This document shows positions 3,817 to 58,600 of a stretch of 64,000 nucleotides of DNA, in pieces; position 1 is the stretch's first letter, and every line of letters begins with the position of its first letter. Below the pieces are notes generated by a model. It made no database searches and had not been told where the DNA came from. It was given only the letters and a program-made list of their open reading frames with translations. Where the stretch lies: NCBI GenBank assembly GCA_965247475.1, contig OZ252016.1, forward strand, positions 982,087 to 1,046,086, in the 5' to 3' direction. The stretch is from Chloroflexota bacterium (GTDB lineage: Bacteria; Chloroflexota; UBA11872). The position numbers were made by a program, and so were the translations under genes.

Positions 3817-3971
3817 GGCTCCGTCCCCTGAGCCTGGGGTGCCCGCGGCGAGTCGCTGCGGCGCCATGCCGGCGGACGCCGGCATCCAGGGAGTCTCGCC
3901 AAGCGCCCCCTCCATCGGCCCCGTACCTCGCGCCGCGCGCGGCCTGGGCTGCCCGGTCCCCTGGACCTCCT

Positions 3972-4078
3972 AAATTCACAAACGAAGTGCAACACCTCAC
4001 GACGGTGCTGCCATGGGGCTCCGATATGCCCAGCTCACCATTGACGAGCGGGGGGCGATTGCCCACCTAGAGGCCGCA
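3972..4078 (+). mobile_element. Solo left-end remnant of an IS30-family element. It comprises the terminal inverted repeat plus the first roughly 20 codons of the transposase.
   Basis: AATTCACAAACGAAGTGCAACACCTCA matches the IR-L of the complete IS30 copy at 54171. The following ATG encodes MGLRYAQLTIDERGAIAHL, which parallels MGRRYAHLTSDERCEIARL of the intact transposase. Similarity is lost after about 100 bp. Confidence 0.55.
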
Positions 4079-16534: not shown

Positions 16535-17776
16535 ATGACGATCGACAAACTGATGGGCCAGACGGTCGCCTTGGCCGCTTCGGGCGGTCTGGACAGCTGC
16601 ACCATCACGCGCTGGCTGACCGAGGAGAGCGCGGTGCGGGTGGTCGCCATGACCGCCGATCTCGCGCAGCCCGACGAGGCCGACATCTCCGCGATCAAGA
16701 CGCGGATGCAACTGGCCGGCGCCGAGGAGGCGATCATCGTCGACGCGCGCGAAGCACTGGCGCGTGCTGGGCTGGAGGTGATCCAGGCGCAGGCGCGCTA
16801 CGAGGGCGGCTACTGGAATACGACCGGCATCGCGCGCCACGTAACCGTGGCGGCGTTGCTCCCGGAGGTCCGGCGCCGGAACATCGAGATCTTCGCGCAC
16901 GGCGCGACCGGCCGCGGGAACGACCAGGTCAGGTTTCAACTCGCGACCAACATGCTGGCGCCGGACATCCAGGTGTATGCGCCCTGGCGCGATTCGGTCT
17001 TTCTCGAGGAGTTTCCGGGCCGCAGGGAGATGATCGCGTTCTGTGAGCGCGAGGACATCCCGATCCGCGCGACGCTCGAGAAGCCGTACTCGACCGACGC
17101 CAACCTGCTGGGGCTCACGCATGAGGCCGGCAAGCTGGAAGACCTGGATACGCCGGCCCACTTCGTCGACCCGGAGATGGGCGCGTATCCGGCGGACGCC
17201 CCGGACGACCCGGAACGCGTCAGGGTTCGCTTCGAGGCCGGAGTCCCAGTAGCGATCGACGGCGAGCCGGTCGGTCCGGTCGAGGCGTTCGAGCGCGCGA
17301 ACCAAACGGCGGGCCGACACGGTGTCGGCATCGGGCTGCACGTCGTCGAGAACCGCTTCGTCGGCATCAAGTCGCGGGGCGTGTACGAGGCGCCTGGCAT
17401 GGAGCTGCTCGGCACGTGCTACGAGTACGTGCTCCAACTCGTTCTCGACCGGCGCGCCCGCCCGGTGTTCGACTCGCTCTCGGCGCAACTCGGACGCCAG
17501 ATCTACGAGGGCTACTGGTTCGATCAAGCCAGCACGGCGATCCGCGCGGGCATCGCCGAGTTCGCCAGGCTCGTCAGCGGCGAGGTCGCCGTCGATCTGC
17601 TGAAGGGCAATATTGCGTTTGTGTCGGCGAGCGATGTGCCGCACTCGCTCTACTCCGACGCGTCCAGCATGGAGGGCGTCGGCGAGTTCGATCACCGCGA
17701 TTCGGAGGGCTTTCTGGGCGTGCTCGGCGTGAGTGCGCGGGCGCTGCACTCCGGCCGGCAGGTTCGCGGCGAATGA
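16535..17776 (+). CDS. argG: Argininosuccinate synthase
   Basis: AASGGLDSCTITRWL (PP-loop motif) and ArgG-typical conservation along the whole length. Confidence 0.9.
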   Translation: MTIDKLMGQTVALAASGGLDSCTITRWLTEESAVRVVAMTADLAQPDEADISAIKTRMQLAGAEEAIIVDAREALARAGLEVIQAQARYEGGYWNTTGIARHVTVAALLPEVRRRNIEIFAHGATGRGNDQVRFQLATNMLAPDIQVYAPWRDSVFLEEFPGRREMIAFCEREDIPIRATLEKPYSTDANLLGLTHEAGKLEDLDTPAHFVDPEMGAYPADAPDDPERVRVRFEAGVPVAIDGEPVGPVEAFERANQTAGRHGVGIGLHVVENRFVGIKSRGVYEAPGMELLGTCYEYVLQLVLDRRARPVFDSLSAQLGRQIYEGYWFDQASTAIRAGIAEFARLVSGEVAVDLLKGNIAFVSASDVPHSLYSDASSMEGVGEFDHRDSEGFLGVLGVSARALHSGRQVRGE

Positions 17777-51659: not shown

Positions 51660-51954
51660 CGGTTCTTCGACCGACGCCGGCGGGCGCCAACCGACGCGCG
51701 GGTGGTGCGAGCTGACGGCTTTGGAGGCCGATCATTCGTGGTCGATCGCGCCGTCCGTCCGAGAGACGCTTGGCGGCCTCATGGTAGTGCCGTAGGCGGA
51801 TTCTCCATCGGTATGCTGGCGGGAGCCCTCCCGATCATTCCGAATCACACGGCTGCCGACCAAGCTCCGGGGCTCCGACGCCCGCTGGACACGCCCGCGG
51901 CACCGCGTGCGGCGACCGTTATGTGAAACTGAACCGGAGGCGGCGCGCGCCGAT

Positions 51955-52027
51955 GCCCCCGTAGCTCAGTGGACAGAGCAGCGGCCTTCTAAGCCGTTGG
52001 TCGCAGGTTCGAGTCCTGCCGGGGGCG
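51955..52027 (+). tRNA. tRNA-Arg (anticodon TCT)
   Basis: GCCCCCG-TA-GCTCAGTGGACAGAGC-A-GCGGC-CTTCTAA-GCCGT-TGGTC-GCAGGTTCGAGTCCTGC-CGGGGGC-G. Perfect acceptor stem. CCA is not encoded. Confidence 0.8.
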
Positions 52028-52226
52028 CCGCCGACCAGGCGTCACGGGTGCCCCGAACCTGTCAATAGGGCGTTTGCCGGGGCGCGGGTCGTCGAGTCGC
52101 CATCCTGGAGCCATACCGCCCGTTCCTTCGGAGGGTGCGGATGCGCCACACACCGGCCACGACGATCCCGGCGCTGGCCAAACACGAGTTCGGGTCCGAA
52201 TAGCGTAGAAGTCGCAAGCCATTGCT

Positions 52227-53437
52227 CCCCCTAGGGGGAGACCTTTGCATAACCCCGGTGGCTCGCCACAATCGGCCCGGAGGGCAGCGCTGAGGGAAGG
52301 GTAGCCATGCACCGCACCGTGAGTGGGGGGTCGTTCGTGGAGGCGCTACTGCCGGAGCGGCTGGGGCGGAACGCGAAGCTGGAGCGGCTGGACGCGGTGG
52401 TTGACTGGACGCCGTTGGCGGAGGTGGTCGCGGGCATCCACGCCGCGCCCGCCGGCCGTCCCAGCTACCCGCCGCTGGTGATGGTGAACGTGCTAGTGCT
52501 GCAGCAGTGGTACGGGGCCTCCGACGAGGCGATGGAGGAAGCCCGGTGGGACCGGGTCTCGTTCAAGCGGTTCGTGGGGCTGGGGCTGGAGGACGACGCG
52601 CCGGACCACTCGACGATCAGCCGCTTTCGGACGGCCGTGACGGAGCGCGGGCTGGCCGGGCGGCTGTTGCAGGCGGTGAACCGCCAGTGGGAGGCGCGCC
52701 GGTTGCTGGTGAAGCAGGGCACGCTGATCGACGCGACGCTCGTAGCGGCGCAGGCGCGGCGGCCGTCGATGCGGGAGCGGCCGGGGGCCCGGAGCGCGAC
52801 CGACCCGGAGGCTGGATGGACGCGCACAGGAGGCCGAGCGCACTTTGGCTACAAGGCGCACCTCGGGGTGGATGCGGGGTCCGGGCTGATCCGAGCGGCG
52901 GTGCTGACGCCCGCCAACGTGAACGAGACGGAGGTGGCGGACGGGTTGGTGAGCGGCGATGAGGCGGCGGTCTATGCCGACAAGGCCTACGAGTCGAAGG
53001 CCCGCCGGCAGCGGCTGCGGGCGCAGGGCATCAACGACCGGATCATGCACCGCTCGCACAAGCACCAGGCGCAACTGCCGTACTGGCAGCGGCGCCGGAA
53101 CGCGCTGATCGCCCGCGCGCGGGCACCGGTGGAGCGGGTGTTTGGGACGCTGAAGCGATCCTACGGCTATCGGCGCGTGCGCTACCTGGGGCTGGAGCGC
53201 AACGCCACGGAGTTCTTCTTCAAATGCCTGGCCTACAACCTGCGCCGGGCGGACCGGTTGCTGGCCGCCGCGCCCGCGTGTCCCTAGGAGGCCTGCGCCC
53301 TCGGCCGGGCAATGACCGGCGCGCGGCGGGGCCGGGGGCGGCTGAGCAGCCAGAACCACCCGTCCGGTCGCTTCCCCGGTGGACGGCCCCCCTCAAGGCC
53401 GGCTAGGGCGCATTACGCAAAGGTCTCCTAGGGGGCA
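52227..53437 (+). mobile_element. IS5-family insertion sequence, complete, with roughly 28-bp terminal inverted repeats
   Basis: IR-L CCCCCTAGGGGGAGACCTTTGCATAA. IR-R is the reverse complement of TTACGCAAAGGTCTCCTAGGGGG. A single transposase ORF lies between them. Confidence 0.8.
52307..53287 (+). CDS. IS5-family DDE transposase
   Basis: 326 aa. DDE_Tnp_1-type conservation (GTLIDATLV...GYKAHLGVD...YADKAY...RAPVERVFG). Confidence 0.85.
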   Translation: MHRTVSGGSFVEALLPERLGRNAKLERLDAVVDWTPLAEVVAGIHAAPAGRPSYPPLVMVNVLVLQQWYGASDEAMEEARWDRVSFKRFVGLGLEDDAPDHSTISRFRTAVTERGLAGRLLQAVNRQWEARRLLVKQGTLIDATLVAAQARRPSMRERPGARSATDPEAGWTRTGGRAHFGYKAHLGVDAGSGLIRAAVLTPANVNETEVADGLVSGDEAAVYADKAYESKARRQRLRAQGINDRIMHRSHKHQAQLPYWQRRRNALIARARAPVERVFGTLKRSYGYRRVRYLGLERNATEFFFKCLAYNLRRADRLLAAAPACP

Positions 53438-53657
53438 ACGGCCCGCAGATCGGCCTAAGCGCGGTTACAGATTTGGCGCGGCTCAGCGTCGACGCGTGTC
53501 CCGTCGGTTCTTTTGAGTTCTACGGAATACGCACAGCGCTCCACCAGACGGACGGTGCAAAATTGAAGTGTGATAGCCACCTCAGGACCCACAGACCCGC
53601 TCCGTCAACCAGCACCGGCCCGCAGGCCTCCGGGCTAGGACATCACCAAATCGTCAA

Positions 53658-53966
53658 ATGCAGTACCGCCTCCTCCTCGGGCTACTACTCCTACTGACAA
53701 CTCTCCTCTTCGCCGCGTGCGGTGAAGGCACCGCGACCGAGTTGAGTTCAGATCACCGTGCGGTGGCTGACGCGAACGCGAAGCCGTGCAGTACTCCGCC
53801 GCGACCGGCATCCAGATCAAAGAAGGCCGATCTCATCCTCACCGAAGCCGACGCCGGCAAGACCATCCAGACCCCGACGTTCCAGGCTGACCTCGGCAAC
53901 CCGGACAAGAAGGGCGTCATGCTGACGCTGGAGGGCGACGACGCCGCCCTGCCGATCCGGCCCTAG
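53658..53966 (+). pseudogene. N-terminal fragment (signal peptide plus about 80 aa) of a lipoprotein paralogous to 25050..25610
   Basis: Lipobox LLFAACGEG. LTEADAGKTIQTPTFQADLGNPDKKGVMLTLEGDDA parallels LTEADAGRVIDVDYFQYEIGLPDKKGTEIHLEGDDA of the intact copy. The ORF stops immediately afterwards. Confidence 0.5.
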
Positions 53967-54170
53967 GGTCGGGCGATGCCGCGCGACCACGCTCGCGAGT
54001 CACACGAGATCACACCCGCCGTGAGAGGGGCTCGCCGGCCAAGCCCGGAGACCCTGCGGGGATTCTGATCAGTCCCCCCGATGAGGAGACGTTTGCATAA
54101 CCCGGTCAGGCTGAGGATGTCCGGGGAGAACCCTGCGCGGTTCCAGGTTGGGTGGGGCCTAGATTCCCTA

Positions 54171-55196
54171 GATTCACAAACGAAGTGCAACACCTCATGA
54201 AGGTCCTGCGATGGGACGCCGATACGCGCACCTCACCAGTGACGAGCGCTGTGAGATTGCCCGCCTACGCGCCCAGGGCCGCTCGATCCGGCAAATTGCT
54301 GCAAGTCTGGATCGCGCGCCATCGAGCATTGCGCGGGAGCTGACGCGCAACCGGTCACGCACCCAGGGCTACCAGCCCCGCTATGCCGACCAGCAGGCCC
54401 ACGCCCGCCGCTGGCGCGGCGCCCGCCTCGACCGGGATCCGGCGCTGCGCGACCGCGTCCTCGCCCGCCTCGCCCAGGGCTGGTCCCCCGAGCAGGTCGC
54501 CGGCCGGTTGGCCCGCGAGGCCGGCCGCTCGGTCATTGCCCACGAAACCATCGACCGGTTCATCTATGCCCAGCTCGCCCGCACGAAGGACTACACGTGG
54601 CGCTACTACCTGCCCCGCGCCAAGTCCAAACGCGGCTGGCGCGGGCGCAAAGGCGGTAGCCCCGCCTCCTTTATCGCCCACCGCCGCCCCCTGGCCGACC
54701 GACCCGTCGCCGCCGCGGACCGCCAGACCCCCGGCCACTGGGAGGCCGACCTGATGCTCGTCCGCACCTATGGCCAGGCGGTCCTCACCGTGCACGAGCG
54801 TCACTCCCGGCTCCTCGTCGCCGTCCGCCCGCCCGGCAAAGCCGCCGCCCCCATCGCGACCGCCCTGACCCAGCTCCTGGCGCCCTTGCCGCCCCCCTGG
54901 CGCCAACCCGTCACCTTCGACAACGGCACCGAGTTCGCCCGCCATCACCGCCTCCATGCGCTCGGCCTCGCCACCTTCTTCTGCGACCCCCACGCCCCCT
55001 GGCAGCAAGGCGGGATCGAGACCGCCATCGGCCGCCTGCGCCGGACGTTGCCCCGCAAGACCGACCTCGTCGGCCTGCCGGACGACCGCTTTCGGCAGGT
55101 GGTCCAGGCCTACAACAACACCCCCCGCAAGTGCCTCGGCTACCAGACCCCCGCCGAGGTCTTCTGGACACACGTGTTGCACTTGAAATGTGAATC
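54171..55196 (+). mobile_element. IS30-family insertion sequence, complete
   Basis: IR-L GATTCACAAACGAAGTGCAACAC. IR-R, as its reverse complement, is GATTCACATTTCAAGTGCAACAC. The two match at 19 of 23 positions. Confidence 0.85.
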
Positions 55197-55221
55197 CACC
55201 TTCCGGCGTTCGCGGGAATGA
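54211..55221 (+). CDS. IS30-family transposase (HTH_38 plus DDE integrase core)
   Basis: 336 aa. N-terminal HTH (LTSDERCEIARLRAQGRSIRQIAASLDRAPSSIARE). DDE core (...HWEADLM...TFDNGTEF...). Confidence 0.85.
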   Translation: MGRRYAHLTSDERCEIARLRAQGRSIRQIAASLDRAPSSIARELTRNRSRTQGYQPRYADQQAHARRWRGARLDRDPALRDRVLARLAQGWSPEQVAGRLAREAGRSVIAHETIDRFIYAQLARTKDYTWRYYLPRAKSKRGWRGRKGGSPASFIAHRRPLADRPVAAADRQTPGHWEADLMLVRTYGQAVLTVHERHSRLLVAVRPPGKAAAPIATALTQLLAPLPPPWRQPVTFDNGTEFARHHRLHALGLATFFCDPHAPWQQGGIETAIGRLRRTLPRKTDLVGLPDDRFRQVVQAYNNTPRKCLGYQTPAEVFWTHVLHLKCESTFRRSRE

Positions 55222-55435
55222 CGAGGGGTTACGCAAGGGTCTCCGGCGAGGGGGAGTCGGCTCGTCGGGAGCCCAACCCCGACGAGCCGGTGGGCGAACA
55301 GAGCGCTCTTCGTCTCGGGACAGGCTCGATCAAGCAGCAGCCCCGCGCCGCGTCTGACGGATACGCTCAGGCCACGGCCGTCATGAGCCGTGCACGATGT
55401 TCTCCTTCCACCTGCCGTACCGCTCGAACGTCACC

Positions 55436-55540
55436 TCAGAGGCGTGCTCGAGCCGCTTGGCCGGATCGCCACTCGACCAGCTCGAGGATCAGGTCCGTTT
55501 GGTCCATCACGTTGCCGCGGAACTCCAGGACCTTTGCCGC
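55436..55540 (-). pseudogene. C-terminal fragment of the same lipoprotein paralogue, lying on the opposite strand from the N-fragment
   Basis: The minus-strand translation AAAKVLEFRGNVMDQTDLILELVEWRSG parallels AAKVLEFRGSGRGETDVIVELVERD of 25050..25610. Confidence 0.4.
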
Positions 55541-55602
55541 CGCCACCGGGGCCGCCGCTCGCCCGCGCGCTCGGCGGCCTGAGGGAATGCTTTGACGGCT
55601 GA

Positions 55603-58600
55603 TTGCGTAGTCTCTGGGCAAGGAGCGCTGCGCCCGGAGGCCCGCGCGTGCGAGCGCGACGATTGACTCAGGATCAAGGGCGCCGACGGCTGTGGACCAT
55701 CGGGCTGGCGGCGGCATTGCTGGCGATGATGCTTGGCCTCGCCGTGCGGTTTGTGGCCGAAGTGGAGGCCTTTGCGCCGCCGCCCGCGCCACTGCCAACC
55801 GCCGCCGCCCCAAGCTCGACGCCACCAGCCGACGCGTTCGCGCCAACGGCGGACACAACGACTCCGGCACCCGGCGAGCGGTTCATCGCCGTGAGCAGCG
55901 GCAACTTTCACACCTGTGCGCTGCGCGCCGACGGTGAACCTGTGTGCTGGGGCGCCAAGCCGGTAGATCCTGACGCTGGCTTGCGGCTGGTTGACTTCGG
56001 TCAGACCTCGCCGCCCGCCAGCGAGCGGTTCGTGGCCATCAGCAGCGGTGGGTTCCACACCTGCGGCCTGCGCCAGAACGGAACCGTCGTGTGTTAGGGC
56101 GCTGAGGTAGGTGACGAGACCAGGGGATACGGCCAAGTCGGGCACGGCTAAACATCCCCCCGGAAGGTGAGGTCTTTGTAGCTATCAGCAGCGGAGGCGG
56201 GCACACCTGCGGACTCCGCGAGGATGGCACGGCTGTCTGCTGGGGCGACGACAGCTCAGGCCAGGCAACGCCGCCCGAGGGTGAACGCTTCGCGTCCATC
56301 AGCAGCGGCTCGTACCACACCTGCGGGCTGCGTGAAGATGGATCCGGTGCCTGCTGGGGGCCCGAGTACAACTCGGGGGCGTGGGAAGTGCCGCCCGAAA
56401 ACCCGTTGGTCGTTCTGGACAGCGCCGACGGCTATACGTGCGGCCTGCGGCAAGACGGCTCCCCGATCTGCTGGGGGGGCGAGCGGTCGGACGAGGTCTA
56501 CGCCAACCAGTACCCGCGCAGCTCCGAGCGTTTCATAGCCATCAGTGGGCGTGACAGTCGCGGACGCGGCGGCTGCGGCCTTTGGACCAACGGCACCGCG
56601 GTGTGCTGGGGCGGTGTCGATCCGCCCCCGCAGCGGCAGCAGTTCACCGCGATCAGCAGCGGTCTGGAACACACCTGCGGTCTCCGCCGCGATGACGGCG
56701 GGCTCGTGTGCTGGGGCGGCGACGAGTTTGGCCAATCGTCGCCGGCCGGGATGCGGTTCGTTGCCCTCAGTAGCGGCGAGCGGCATGTCTGTGCCCTTCG
56801 GGCGAACGGCGCGCCCATCTGCTGGGGTGACCCGGCGCAAGGTCGCACCGCGCCGCCTGCAGGCGAGACGTTCGCGGCCATCAGCAGCGGCTGGGCCCAC
56901 ACCTGCGCCCTGAGGTCTGACGGGGCGCCGGTTTGCTGGGGTCGGAACGACTACGGCCAGGCGCAGCCGCCGGACGGCGAGCAGCTAAGCGCCCTCAGCA
57001 GCGGGCCTACCCACAGCTGCGGCTTGCGCTCGGACGGCACGCCCCTCTGCTGGGGCCGGAATGACGACGGCCAGGCGTCATCGCCCGCCGGCGCACAATT
57101 CACGTCGATCAGCAGCGGCGGAAGCCACACCTGCGCCCTGCACGCCGATGGCAGTCCGTTCTGCTGGGGCGACGAGGACGACGCGGTCACTCGCGCGCCC
57201 AATGTCGACCAGTACAGCTCGATTGTCAGTGGCAGCGGGTATGCCTGCGGACTGCGGTCGGACGGCACGCTGGTTTGCTGGGGTAGAGGCTCCTTGGGAG
57301 CTCCGCAGGGCGAAACGCTCTCGGTCGTAAGCCTCGGGTCGGGCCACAGCTGCGGCCTGCGTCGGGACGGCCGACCCGTCTGTTGGGGCGATGGGTACGA
57401 CACGCCGGTGGTCACGGCCCGCCGATCCACCTACCAGATCATCAGCGAGCAGAGCGTTCGCGCCGTGAGCGGCGGCTATGGGCGCACCTGCGCCCTGCGC
57501 CATGACGGCCGCCCCGTGTGCTGGTCGCTCAGGAGCGCCTATCCAAATCTGAGCGGCGAGCTGTCGGTGCCGTATGGCGAGCACTTCACCACGCTCAGCA
57601 GCGGTGGCGGTCACACGTGCGCCTTGCGCGACGACGGTACGGCCGTGTGCTGGGGTTCCGACGATGAAGACAAGTCGTCGCCGCCTGAGGGCGAGCGCTT
57701 CACGGCGGTGAGCACCGGCTTCTCGTTCACGTGCGGCCTGCGTGAGGATGGCGCCGCTGTCTGCTGGGGGAGCGATGAACGCGGAGGGGCGTCGCCCCCG
57801 GAAGGTGGGCGGTTCGTCGCCATCAGCAGCGGCCTGGGTCTGAGGCATGGGCACACCTGCGCGCTGCAAGAGGACGGGTCCGCCGTCTGCTGGGGTTCAA
57901 ATGACGAGGGCCAGGCCTCGCCACCGGCCGACGAACGCTTCATGGCCATCAGCAGCGGCGCGCAACATACGTGCGCCCTGCGCCTGGACGGGACCGCCGT
58001 CTGTTGGGGCTACGACTGGGACCGCTAGGCATCGCCCCCGCCCGGACAGACGTTCACTGCCATTGCCAGTGGCCGCGCCCACACGTGCGCCATTCGCGCC
58101 GACGACGGAACGGCCGTCTGCTGGGGATCGAACCGCGACTTCATCTACGACTATCTGGGCCAGGCCAGGCCGCCCTATGGCGAAACCTTTTCCGCCATCA
58201 GCACCGGCCAGGACCAGACGTGTGGCGTGCGCTCCGCCGATTCGACGCCGGTGTGCTGGGGGGAAGGACCCGGGCACCGATCCGGGTATCCCAAGCTCAA
58301 GCCCTTTGCCGAGGTCGGCGGTGAGACGTTCAAGTCCATCAGCAGCGGCGACGGCCATGTCTGCGCCCTGCGCAACGACGGAACCGCCGTCTGTTGGGGC
58401 GACAACGAGACCGGTGAGGCCAATCCGCCGCCGGAGACGTTCAGCGCGATCAGCAGCGGGGCCAACCACACCTGTGCCCTGCGGGCGTCGGATGGGGCGG
58501 CGATCTGCTGGGGCAGCAATCGCACCCCCGATGGCAAGTTCGCCGGCTATCGCGATCAGGCGCTGCCGCCCTCTGGCGAGTCCTTCGTCGCCATCAGCAG

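Follow-up and report, generated by a model that had tools for sequence, protein, structure and literature searches.

A complete IS30-family element nested in the REP-like hairpin of a MITE with IS5-type ends in a Chloroflexota genome

The DNA considered here is a stretch of 64,000 nucleotides (hereafter the window) from a Chloroflexota bacterium (assembly GCA_965247475.1, contig OZ252016.1, positions 982,087 to 1,046,086 of the forward strand). It holds an autonomous insertion sequence (IS) of the IS5 family and, 650 bp away, a MITE (miniature inverted-repeat transposable element) that is interrupted by a complete IS30-family element (Table 1). The MITE can be recognized by a 19-nt terminal sequence of IS5 type, GGAGACCTTTGCATAACCC. 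With up to three mismatches allowed, this sequence is found four times in the window, always in the right orientation, while the expected number is zero (100 shuffles, no match in any of them). Two of the matches, at 52237 (+) and 53410 (-), are the ends of the IS5-family element. The other two, at 54085 (+, 1 mismatch) and 55226 (-, 2 mismatches), are mutually inverted and enclose the IS30-family element, and they are identical to the ends of the IS5-family neighbor at 16-18 of 19 positions. Thus, the nesting of a complete IS30 element within a MITE having inverted ends of IS5 type, as proposed in a first-pass annotation of the window, is confirmed both by these ends and by an empty allele in a close relative, which is described below.

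Table 1. Coordinates of the mobile elements, their genes, target duplications and related features in the window (ORF, open reading frame; REP, repetitive extragenic palindromic).
Feature	Position	Strand	Evidence or remark
Autonomous IS5-family element, 1,192 bp	52237..53428	+	Terminal repeats GGAGACCTTTGCATAA / TTACGCAAAGGTCTCC; absent from orthologous loci
IS5-family transposase ORF, 326 aa	52307..53287	+	NCBIfam NF033581, 289.2 bits (cut-off 140); Pfam DUF772 and DDE_Tnp_1
IS5 target duplication TAGGG, left copy	52232..52236		Abuts element end; empty sites
IS5 target duplication TAGGG, right copy	53429..53433		Abuts element end; empty sites
MITE left flank: C6 palindrome arm and GATGA (decayed duplication copy)	54074..54084		Identical in L249
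MITE left arm, 84 bp	54085..54168	+	Terminal repeat 54085-54103; 96% identical to L249 16860-17084
IS30 target duplication TTCC(C), left copy	54164..54168		L249 empty site, 4-nt junction overlap; flank covariation in 59 relatives
Complete IS30-family element, 1,032 bp (1,033 bp if C54168 is included)	54169..55200	+	Absent from L249 MITE
IS30-family transposase ORF, 336 aa	54211..55221	+	NF033563, 214.8 bits (cut-off 80); Pfam HTH_38 (1.9e-14) and rve
IS30 target duplication TTCC(G), right copy	55201..55205		L249 empty site; flank covariation
MITE right arm, 44 bp	55201..55244	+	98% identical to L249 17081-17351
MITE right flank: GGCGA (decayed duplication copy) and G5 palindrome arm	55245..55254		Sequence; L249
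5' remnant of a second, diverged IS30-clade copy, 82 bp, 86.6% identical	3969..4050	+	Truncated after ~19 codons
Standalone unoccupied REP-like hairpin GTCATTCCGGC-GGAC-GCCGGAATCC (GTCATTCCGGCGGACGCCGGAATCC)	61511..61536	-	Intergenic gap

The termini of the MITE were placed at 54085 and 55244 (GGAGAC...GTCTCC) because two identical copies of the IS5-family element lose their identity exactly at the corresponding bases. When the IS30-family element and one copy of a 5-nt duplication are removed from the interrupted span 54085-55244, a MITE of 123 bp is left. The first-pass annotation had assigned it about 140 bp and outer bounds of 54073 and 55255, and both are too wide. The additional segments 54073-54084 and 55245-55255 (CCCCCC-GATGA and GGCGA-GGGGG) are the target, that is, a palindrome and a presumed, decayed duplication in which three of five positions match. 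In the same way, the C5...G5 runs around the IS5-family element (52227-52236 and 53429-53437) and the analogous runs around the MITE (54075-54084 and 55245-55255) are flanking target sequence, and they resemble each other because both elements occupy similar targets. The left arm of the MITE ends in GATTCCC, the 5' stem of a subterminal hairpin, and the right arm is composed of the hairpin TTCCGGCG-TT-CGCGGGAA (55201-55218), TGAC, and the terminal repeat at 55226-55244. Small size, terminal inverted repeats and the absence of coding capacity are the properties of a MITE. No second copy of the arms was found by blastn in the remainder of the window, and an Rfam scan of 51800-55600 returned only tRNA, with no RNA family matching the arms. 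No promoter-like sites were detected in 53900-55400, and the sole terminator-like hairpin found in scanning this region (53914-53928) lies outside the MITE and the IS30 element. Apart from the terminal repeat of ~19 nt, MITE and IS5 element show no similarity, their internal sequences being unrelated. Judged from the sequence, the MITE is therefore a partner of the IS5 group and not a demonstrable deletion derivative of the adjacent copy. It had been called a non-autonomous miniature derivative of the IS5 element, and while the non-autonomous nature and the IS5-type ends stand, descent from that element is not supported, since only the terminal repeat is in common.

The order of the two insertions can be read from the orthologous loci, which were fetched with the help of a conserved gene lying 2.4 kb upstream of the MITE. 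One of them, the metagenome contig L249 from a close relative, is 96-98% identical to the window and has an intact 123-bp MITE at the same locus (17001-17123), with identical flanks and no IS30 (...CAGTCCCCCCGATGA / GGAGACG...GGTCTCC / GGCGAGGGGGAGTCGG...). This MITE agrees with the reconstruction from the window at 119 of 123 positions. The window segment 53944-54168 corresponds to L249 16860-17084, and 55201-55471 corresponds to 17081-17351, with an overlap of 4 nt. Because L249 has the MITE alone between identical flanks, the IS30 element was inserted later and is polymorphic among close relatives. From these alignments, two successive transpositions, of the 123-bp MITE and then of the IS30 element inside it, can be proposed with high confidence. 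In the loci L242-L248 the IS5 sites are empty, but no empty MITE site is found, as the segment 54020-55339 is replaced or absent. In L244 (13950-15582) and L247 (13937-15569), ~1.6 kb of unrelated DNA replaces this segment, which includes the MITE and IS30 with ~65 bp and ~95 bp of their flanks. The replacement DNA carries an ORF of 331/362 aa without Pfam match and a 105-aa fragment of a thiamine pyrophosphate (TPP) enzyme.

Elements of the IS30 family are ~1.0-1.25 kb long, with terminal inverted repeats of ~20-30 bp. The element in the window agrees with this family in its transposase profile, the N-terminal helix-turn-helix region, the single ORF, the size, the repeats and the target duplication. 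Its left and right inverted repeats occupy 54169-54193 and 55174-55198, where 20 of 25 positions match (core, 54171-54193 and 55174-55196). Among 72,556 plasmids searched by tblastn, the IS30-family genes were only distantly related (less than 47% identity) and had generic names, and no named IS could be assigned. Exact-protein look-ups gave no match for the transposase, nor for the 2-oxoacid oxidoreductase ORF, the small ORF at 53658-53966 and P0001. The transposase ORF overruns the element, so that its final seven codons are MITE sequence and its stop is a TGA (55219-55221) just past the MITE hairpin. A codon boundary of the ORF coincides exactly with the right end of the element (...TCC ACC), and in this clade the left end nearly always begins with a stop triplet, TGA, TAA or TAG (TAG at 54169-54171 in the window). 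One may speculate from this arrangement that, in a circular intermediate with directly joined ends, the left end would supply the stop codon of the ORF. The remnant at 3969-4050 belongs to a different copy with its own left flank, CTGGACCTCC, which resembles the usual target half-site. It had been suggested that the nesting explains this solo IS30 end (then placed at 3972), but the remnant shows only that the IS30 clade visited the genome more than once.

The insertion point of the IS30 element is the 5' stem of the MITE hairpin. This hairpin has the form TTCCCGC-N4-GCGGGAA-TGAC, and in the window it can be reconstructed as ATTCCCGCGTTCGCGGGAAT. In a metagenome scan with the conserved core of the IS30 left end, 120 further loci were found, and 59-70 full copies were analyzed. 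The flanks of 59 full copies are conserved from -14 to +26, with the consensus CTGG(A/G)T(T/C)CCC on the left and CAC(C/A)-T(T/C)CC(C/G)GC-NNNN-GC(G/C)GG(G/A)A-TGAC on the right. A hairpin with at least six of the seven stem pairs is present at the same offset and in the same orientation in 46 of the 59. The flank bases -10 to -6 and +5 to +9 covary, being identical at 4.07 of 5 positions vs. 3.32 (sd 0.09) when shuffled. The transposase gene of 43 of 63 copies, that in the window among them, stops at the hairpin TGA (GGGAATGAC), 22 nt beyond the inverted repeat (GTGAATC). The hairpin beside each copy has the same loop and stem variants as the local MITE subfamily. Only 3 of 70 copies reside in MITE-borne hairpins, so that the nesting of IS30 in a MITE is a by-product of hairpin targeting. 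Relatives in the fetched MAG (metagenome-assembled genome) loci occupy the same place: one at L119 (78% identical) is inserted in a MITE of another subfamily and reads GGATTCCC / TAGAC...GAATCCACC / TTCCCGCCTTCGCGGGAATGAC, and those at L097 and L066 are in hairpins outside any MITE. The copies at L119 and L097, from one genome, are ~86-88% identical to each other with no sharp drop of identity at the ends. Because unoccupied MITEs already hold the hairpin, and an occupied site consists of one hairpin and an extra half-stem, the hairpin is the target and not a part of IS30. The target arm TGGATTCCC resembles the tip of the right end of the element itself, TGGATTCAC (TGGATTC(C/A)C). This likeness, along with the known preferences of IS30, suggests that the target may be recognized by the DNA-binding domain of the transposase.

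The hairpin itself is a short GC-rich palindrome that is repeated and mostly intergenic, like REP-type sequences and the dRS3 form. In 960 kb of related loci there are 133 matches to its exact form and 221 to a relaxed form, a density biased by the choice of these loci for their MITE content. Besides the standalone hairpin of Table 1, the window has an unoccupied variant, CATGCCGGCGGACGCCGGCATCC, at 3866-3892, ~80 bp upstream of the IS30 remnant. At L183, an IS30 relative is found in a hairpin of a seemingly different MITE family with the ends GAGACCTCTTC.../...GAAAAGGTCTC, and this MITE-like element in turn occupies a hairpin loop, the duplication being CTTGC.

The IS5-family element has inverted repeats of 16 nt at 94%. 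A copy at L001 (2931-4122; ENA ERZ26166302 contig_13) is 100% identical to it from 52237 (GGAGACC) to 53428 (GGTCTCC), and identity stops immediately beyond these bases. The contig of this copy is an unrelated one from a metagenome, and the genes around the element are different. Since the identity breaks exactly there, the element measures 1,192 bp. The complete identity of the two copies implies recent activity or transfer. The L001 copy lies inside a CCCTCTCCC...GGGAGAGGG hairpin without a clean duplication (GCC vs. AGC). In L244, L247 and L249 the IS5 site is empty, and the window is longer than these by exactly the element and 5 nt; therefore its duplication is the 5-bp TAGGG, and the target before insertion was CCCCCTAGGGGG. 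A 3-kb composite transposon reaching from the left end of IS5 to the right end of the MITE (52237-55244) was also considered and rejected, because its outer flanks, TAGGG and GGCGA, have no common duplication and L249 carries the MITE without IS5.

The MITE in the window is a member of a large family. In a census in which one genome per species was scanned for two IS5-type ends 78-108 nt apart, at least 120 loci were found, all of them in metagenome-assembled genomes (MAGs) of Chloroflexota/Dehalococcoidia (about 25 MAGs). These loci contain 128-130 intact copies, so that the family counts at least 128, most of which are 122-125 bp long, with one subfamily of 141-142 bp. Common to all copies are the ends and a subterminal hairpin, GGATTCCCGC-NNNN-GCGGGAATGAC, beside one end. 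Without its IS30, the window MITE can be aligned gaplessly with four 123-bp copies of the MAG OZ244806.1 at 92.7-95.9% identity. Thus, further copies, found in the MAGs of this census, and the resemblance of the ends to the IS5 inverted repeats, on which the first-pass annotation had made its proposal depend, both exist. No description of a Chloroflexi MITE family was found in the literature searched. Full-length relatives with the MITE ends are present in the MITE-rich genome OY759972.1. Tandem or closely spaced MITEs are seen with arrays of GGGTCCCCGC-NNNN-GCGAGGAC hairpins in the Dehalococcoidia MAGs at L013 (1165-1501), L092 (960-1250) and L030 (729-2185), which suggests repeat clusters comparable to arrays of bacterial interspersed mosaic elements (BIMEs) or Neisseria intergenic mosaic elements (NIMEs).

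The MITE family and its IS5 relatives are also found in hairpins, at a different place. Exact direct repeats of at least 3 bp abut the ends in 81 of the 128 MITE copies whose flanks sufficed for scoring, compared with ~5 expected from shuffled partners. In the window copy, the corresponding pair GATGA and GGCGA agrees at three of five positions. Just outside the duplications are the perfect stems of two main hairpin families. MITEs in ATTCCCGC...GCGGGAAT hairpins have a 4-bp duplication, and those in CCCTCTCCC...GGGAGAGGG hairpins have one of 3 or 5 bp. Among unoccupied hairpins, the loop of the former is 4 nt long in 232 of 255, and that of the latter is 3 nt (14 cases) or 5 nt (8 cases). As duplication lengths equal the loop lengths of unoccupied hairpins, the whole loop (3-5 bp) is duplicated. 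Full-length IS5 relatives in OY759972.1 likewise have 3-bp duplications (AAT, CAT, AAG) in hairpin loops, many MITEs lie inside the hairpin of another MITE (e.g., L008, L016, L021, L052), and the target of the window MITE is between C6 and G5 arms. Cutting by MITE/IS5 would then be guided by structure, not by sequence.

Other explanations of the locus have to be weighed against these data. The whole 1,160-bp unit of IS5-type ends and IS30 cargo could be mobile as such, having arrived in one piece by the action of an IS5-family transposase. Its IS5-type ends are indeed intact and correctly oriented, and L119 supplies a second case of an IS30 relative in a MITE. This is nevertheless extremely unlikely, since L249 has the 123-bp MITE alone between identical flanks and so places IS30 later, the L119 case is an independent event with another MITE subfamily and an IS30 of only 78% identity, and no further composite copy was present in any fetched locus. 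Least credible of all is that a full-length IS5 copy at this locus lost its interior in a single event and left the arms behind, with no MITE family involved. In its favor, the terminal repeats match those of the neighboring IS5 at 16-18 of 19 positions. Against it are the internal sequence without similarity to the IS5 element, the internal hairpin common to the intact MITE copies (at least 128, with lengths of 122-125 bp and in some cases 141-142 bp), and the four copies with 92.7-95.9% identity over their full length.

The remaining two concern the hairpin. If the hairpin and TGAC were a terminal structure of IS30 with the stop codon of its gene, the element would be longer than 1,032 bp and would merely lie beside the MITE. 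The hairpin beside ~80% of the clade copies and the ORF ending there in 43 of 63 would be explained in this way, and yet it is very improbable, as exactly this hairpin already exists in the unoccupied MITE of L249 and in more than 100 other MITE copies, and agrees with the local subfamily in its loop and stem variants. Moreover, the occupied site in the window has one full hairpin and an extra half-stem rather than two hairpins. There is likewise hardly any chance that IS30 hit the MITE at random and that its position in the hairpin has no meaning. Although the window has a single such insertion and IS elements often land in intergenic repeats, 46 of the 59 independent copies, which come from many metagenomes, have the same nucleotide and orientation at the hairpin, and the duplicated bases covary.

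The nested arrangement can thus be described as two steps. In the first, a 123-bp MITE with the ends GGAGAC..TTGCRTAAC, as in the IS5 element at 52237-53428, entered the center of a short C/G palindrome, presumably moved in trans by the transposase of that IS5 group. Its target before insertion is predicted to be ...CAGTCCCCCC-GNNGA-GGGGGAGTC..., with a single copy of the 5 nt. In the second step, the 1,032-bp IS30 element entered the 5' stem of the MITE hairpin (ATTCCCGCG-NN-CGCGGGAAT-GAC), duplicating TTCC(C). By analogy with IS30, it probably moves by copy-out-paste-in, and a minicircle intermediate is likewise probable. Its N-terminal helix-turn-helix region probably recognizes the hairpin arm that resembles the end of the element itself. 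Elements pile up in one another because hairpin loops, that of the present hairpin among them, are the insertion sites of MITE/IS5. A tentative and possible, though not the favored, generalization is that one REP-like hairpin serves as a shared landing pad, defined by its structure, for two unrelated DDE transposases. IS5/MITE would cut at both stem-loop junctions, so that the duplication would be the loop whatever its length (3, 4, 5 or 6 nt), which would imply that an extruded hairpin or cruciform is recognized rather than a fixed stagger. The IS30 clade would be so dependent on the hairpin that its transposase gene takes the stop codon from the target. Every MITE insertion would then add a landing pad, and a nest of mobile elements that propagates itself would arise in Chloroflexota.

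Several points weigh against the interpretation as two successive steps. The IS30 duplication is imperfect, the left copy being TTCCC and the right copy TTCCG, and both 4 bp and 5 bp fit, more in either case than the 2 bp duplicated by IS30 (PMC9333248). Some fifth of the IS30 clade is without the hairpin (e.g., L126, L135, L236). There is one MITE copy only in the window, its own presumed duplication has decayed (GATGA vs. GGCGA), and among the orthologous loci there is no empty MITE site, L244 and L247 being without the whole segment. MITE and IS5 element have only the terminal repeat in common, and we infer from sequence the mobilization in trans by that transposase, as well as helix-turn-helix recognition, the minicircle and structure-guided cutting.

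Insertion of mobile elements into REP sequences has been known from several IS families: IS1397 and ISKpn1 (IS3), ISPpu9, ISPpu10 and ISPa11 (IS110), and ISRm22 (IS4) (Tobes and Pareja 2006, PMC1525189). The families in that survey are IS3, IS110, IS4, IS256 and IS5, and IS30 is not among them (PMC1525189). As with these ISs, where (nearly) every copy is at the same position of the palindrome ("type 1 association") and hot spots lead to nesting, the clade studied here has a fixed position in its hairpin, at ~80% of copies and not at 100%. For IS1655, by comparison, only 2 of 13 and 2 of 6 copies lie in REPs (PMC1525189). The present case differs from the systems of that survey in that an IS30-family clade uses the 5' stem and an IS5-family group uses the loop. 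IS30 of E. coli favors hot spots that are nearly palindromic and sequences resembling its ends, and makes a 2-bp duplication (PMC9333248), and IS1630 of Mycoplasma fermentans targets inverted repeats, of which 19-26 bp are duplicated according to the report as cited in a later paper (Calcutt 1999, cited in PMC2853133). The window element has the same transposase family (NF033563) as these two; unlike the 2 bp of IS30 and the 19-26 bp given for IS1630 in that citation, it duplicates 4-5 bp, and its clade differs from both in having a specific REP-like hairpin as target, a fixed orientation, and an ORF usually closed by a stop of the target. In the literature searched, nothing specific was found on a REP-targeting IS30 clade.

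The MITE family resembles bacterial MITEs mobilized in trans in that it is small, has the ends of an autonomous IS of the same genomes, has no ORF, and is present in many copies with duplications. Unlike the general class, it has a conserved internal REP-like hairpin, has duplications of variable length, equal to a loop of 3-6 nt, and frequently enters the hairpin of another copy. In Neisseria, the dRS3 repeat, ATTCCC(N8)GGGAAT, is the landing site for the Nf1 prophage (PMC3898611). The hairpin described here is also a landing site for mobile DNA and has exactly that form, e.g., ATTCCCGCCTGCGCGGGAAT beside L124 and L125, but the likeness is one of form only; the hosts are Chloroflexota and diverse organisms of soil and marine metagenomes, and the users of the hairpin differ.

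Some further features lie around these elements. A tRNA-Arg(TCT) gene at 51955-52029, 207 bp upstream of the IS5 element, resembles a hot spot for islands, and the DNA directly after it is wholly different in close relatives. In L245/L246 (11366-20167), the tRNA is followed by a tyrosine integrase, a relaxase-like gene and a type ISP restriction-modification gene, and in L249 (11780-16862) by a 5.6-kb insert delimited by a repeated 3' end of the tRNA (16808-16862). Downstream of the MITE, two adjacent ORFs of 164 aa and 546 aa (55603-58028, +) are made of RCC1-like repeats (...HTCALR.DG..VCWG...), which by blastn have many diverged internal copies and paralogous copies in relatives.

An IS within a MITE is, by itself, ordinary archaeology of mobile DNA, but the target choice in this case is unusually precise. 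For annotation, the 336-aa ORF can now be named as a transposase, and the "repeats" that flank it are not regulatory. The analysis also adds a large MITE family of uncultured Chloroflexota, which was not found described in the literature searched, and an IS30-family clade specific for REP-like hairpins that extends across soil, freshwater and marine metagenomes. Precise target choice is sought for programmable or safe-harbor insertion tools. Moreover, the duplication length that tracks the length of the loop provides a natural data set, by which it becomes testable whether DDE transposases read structure or sequence.

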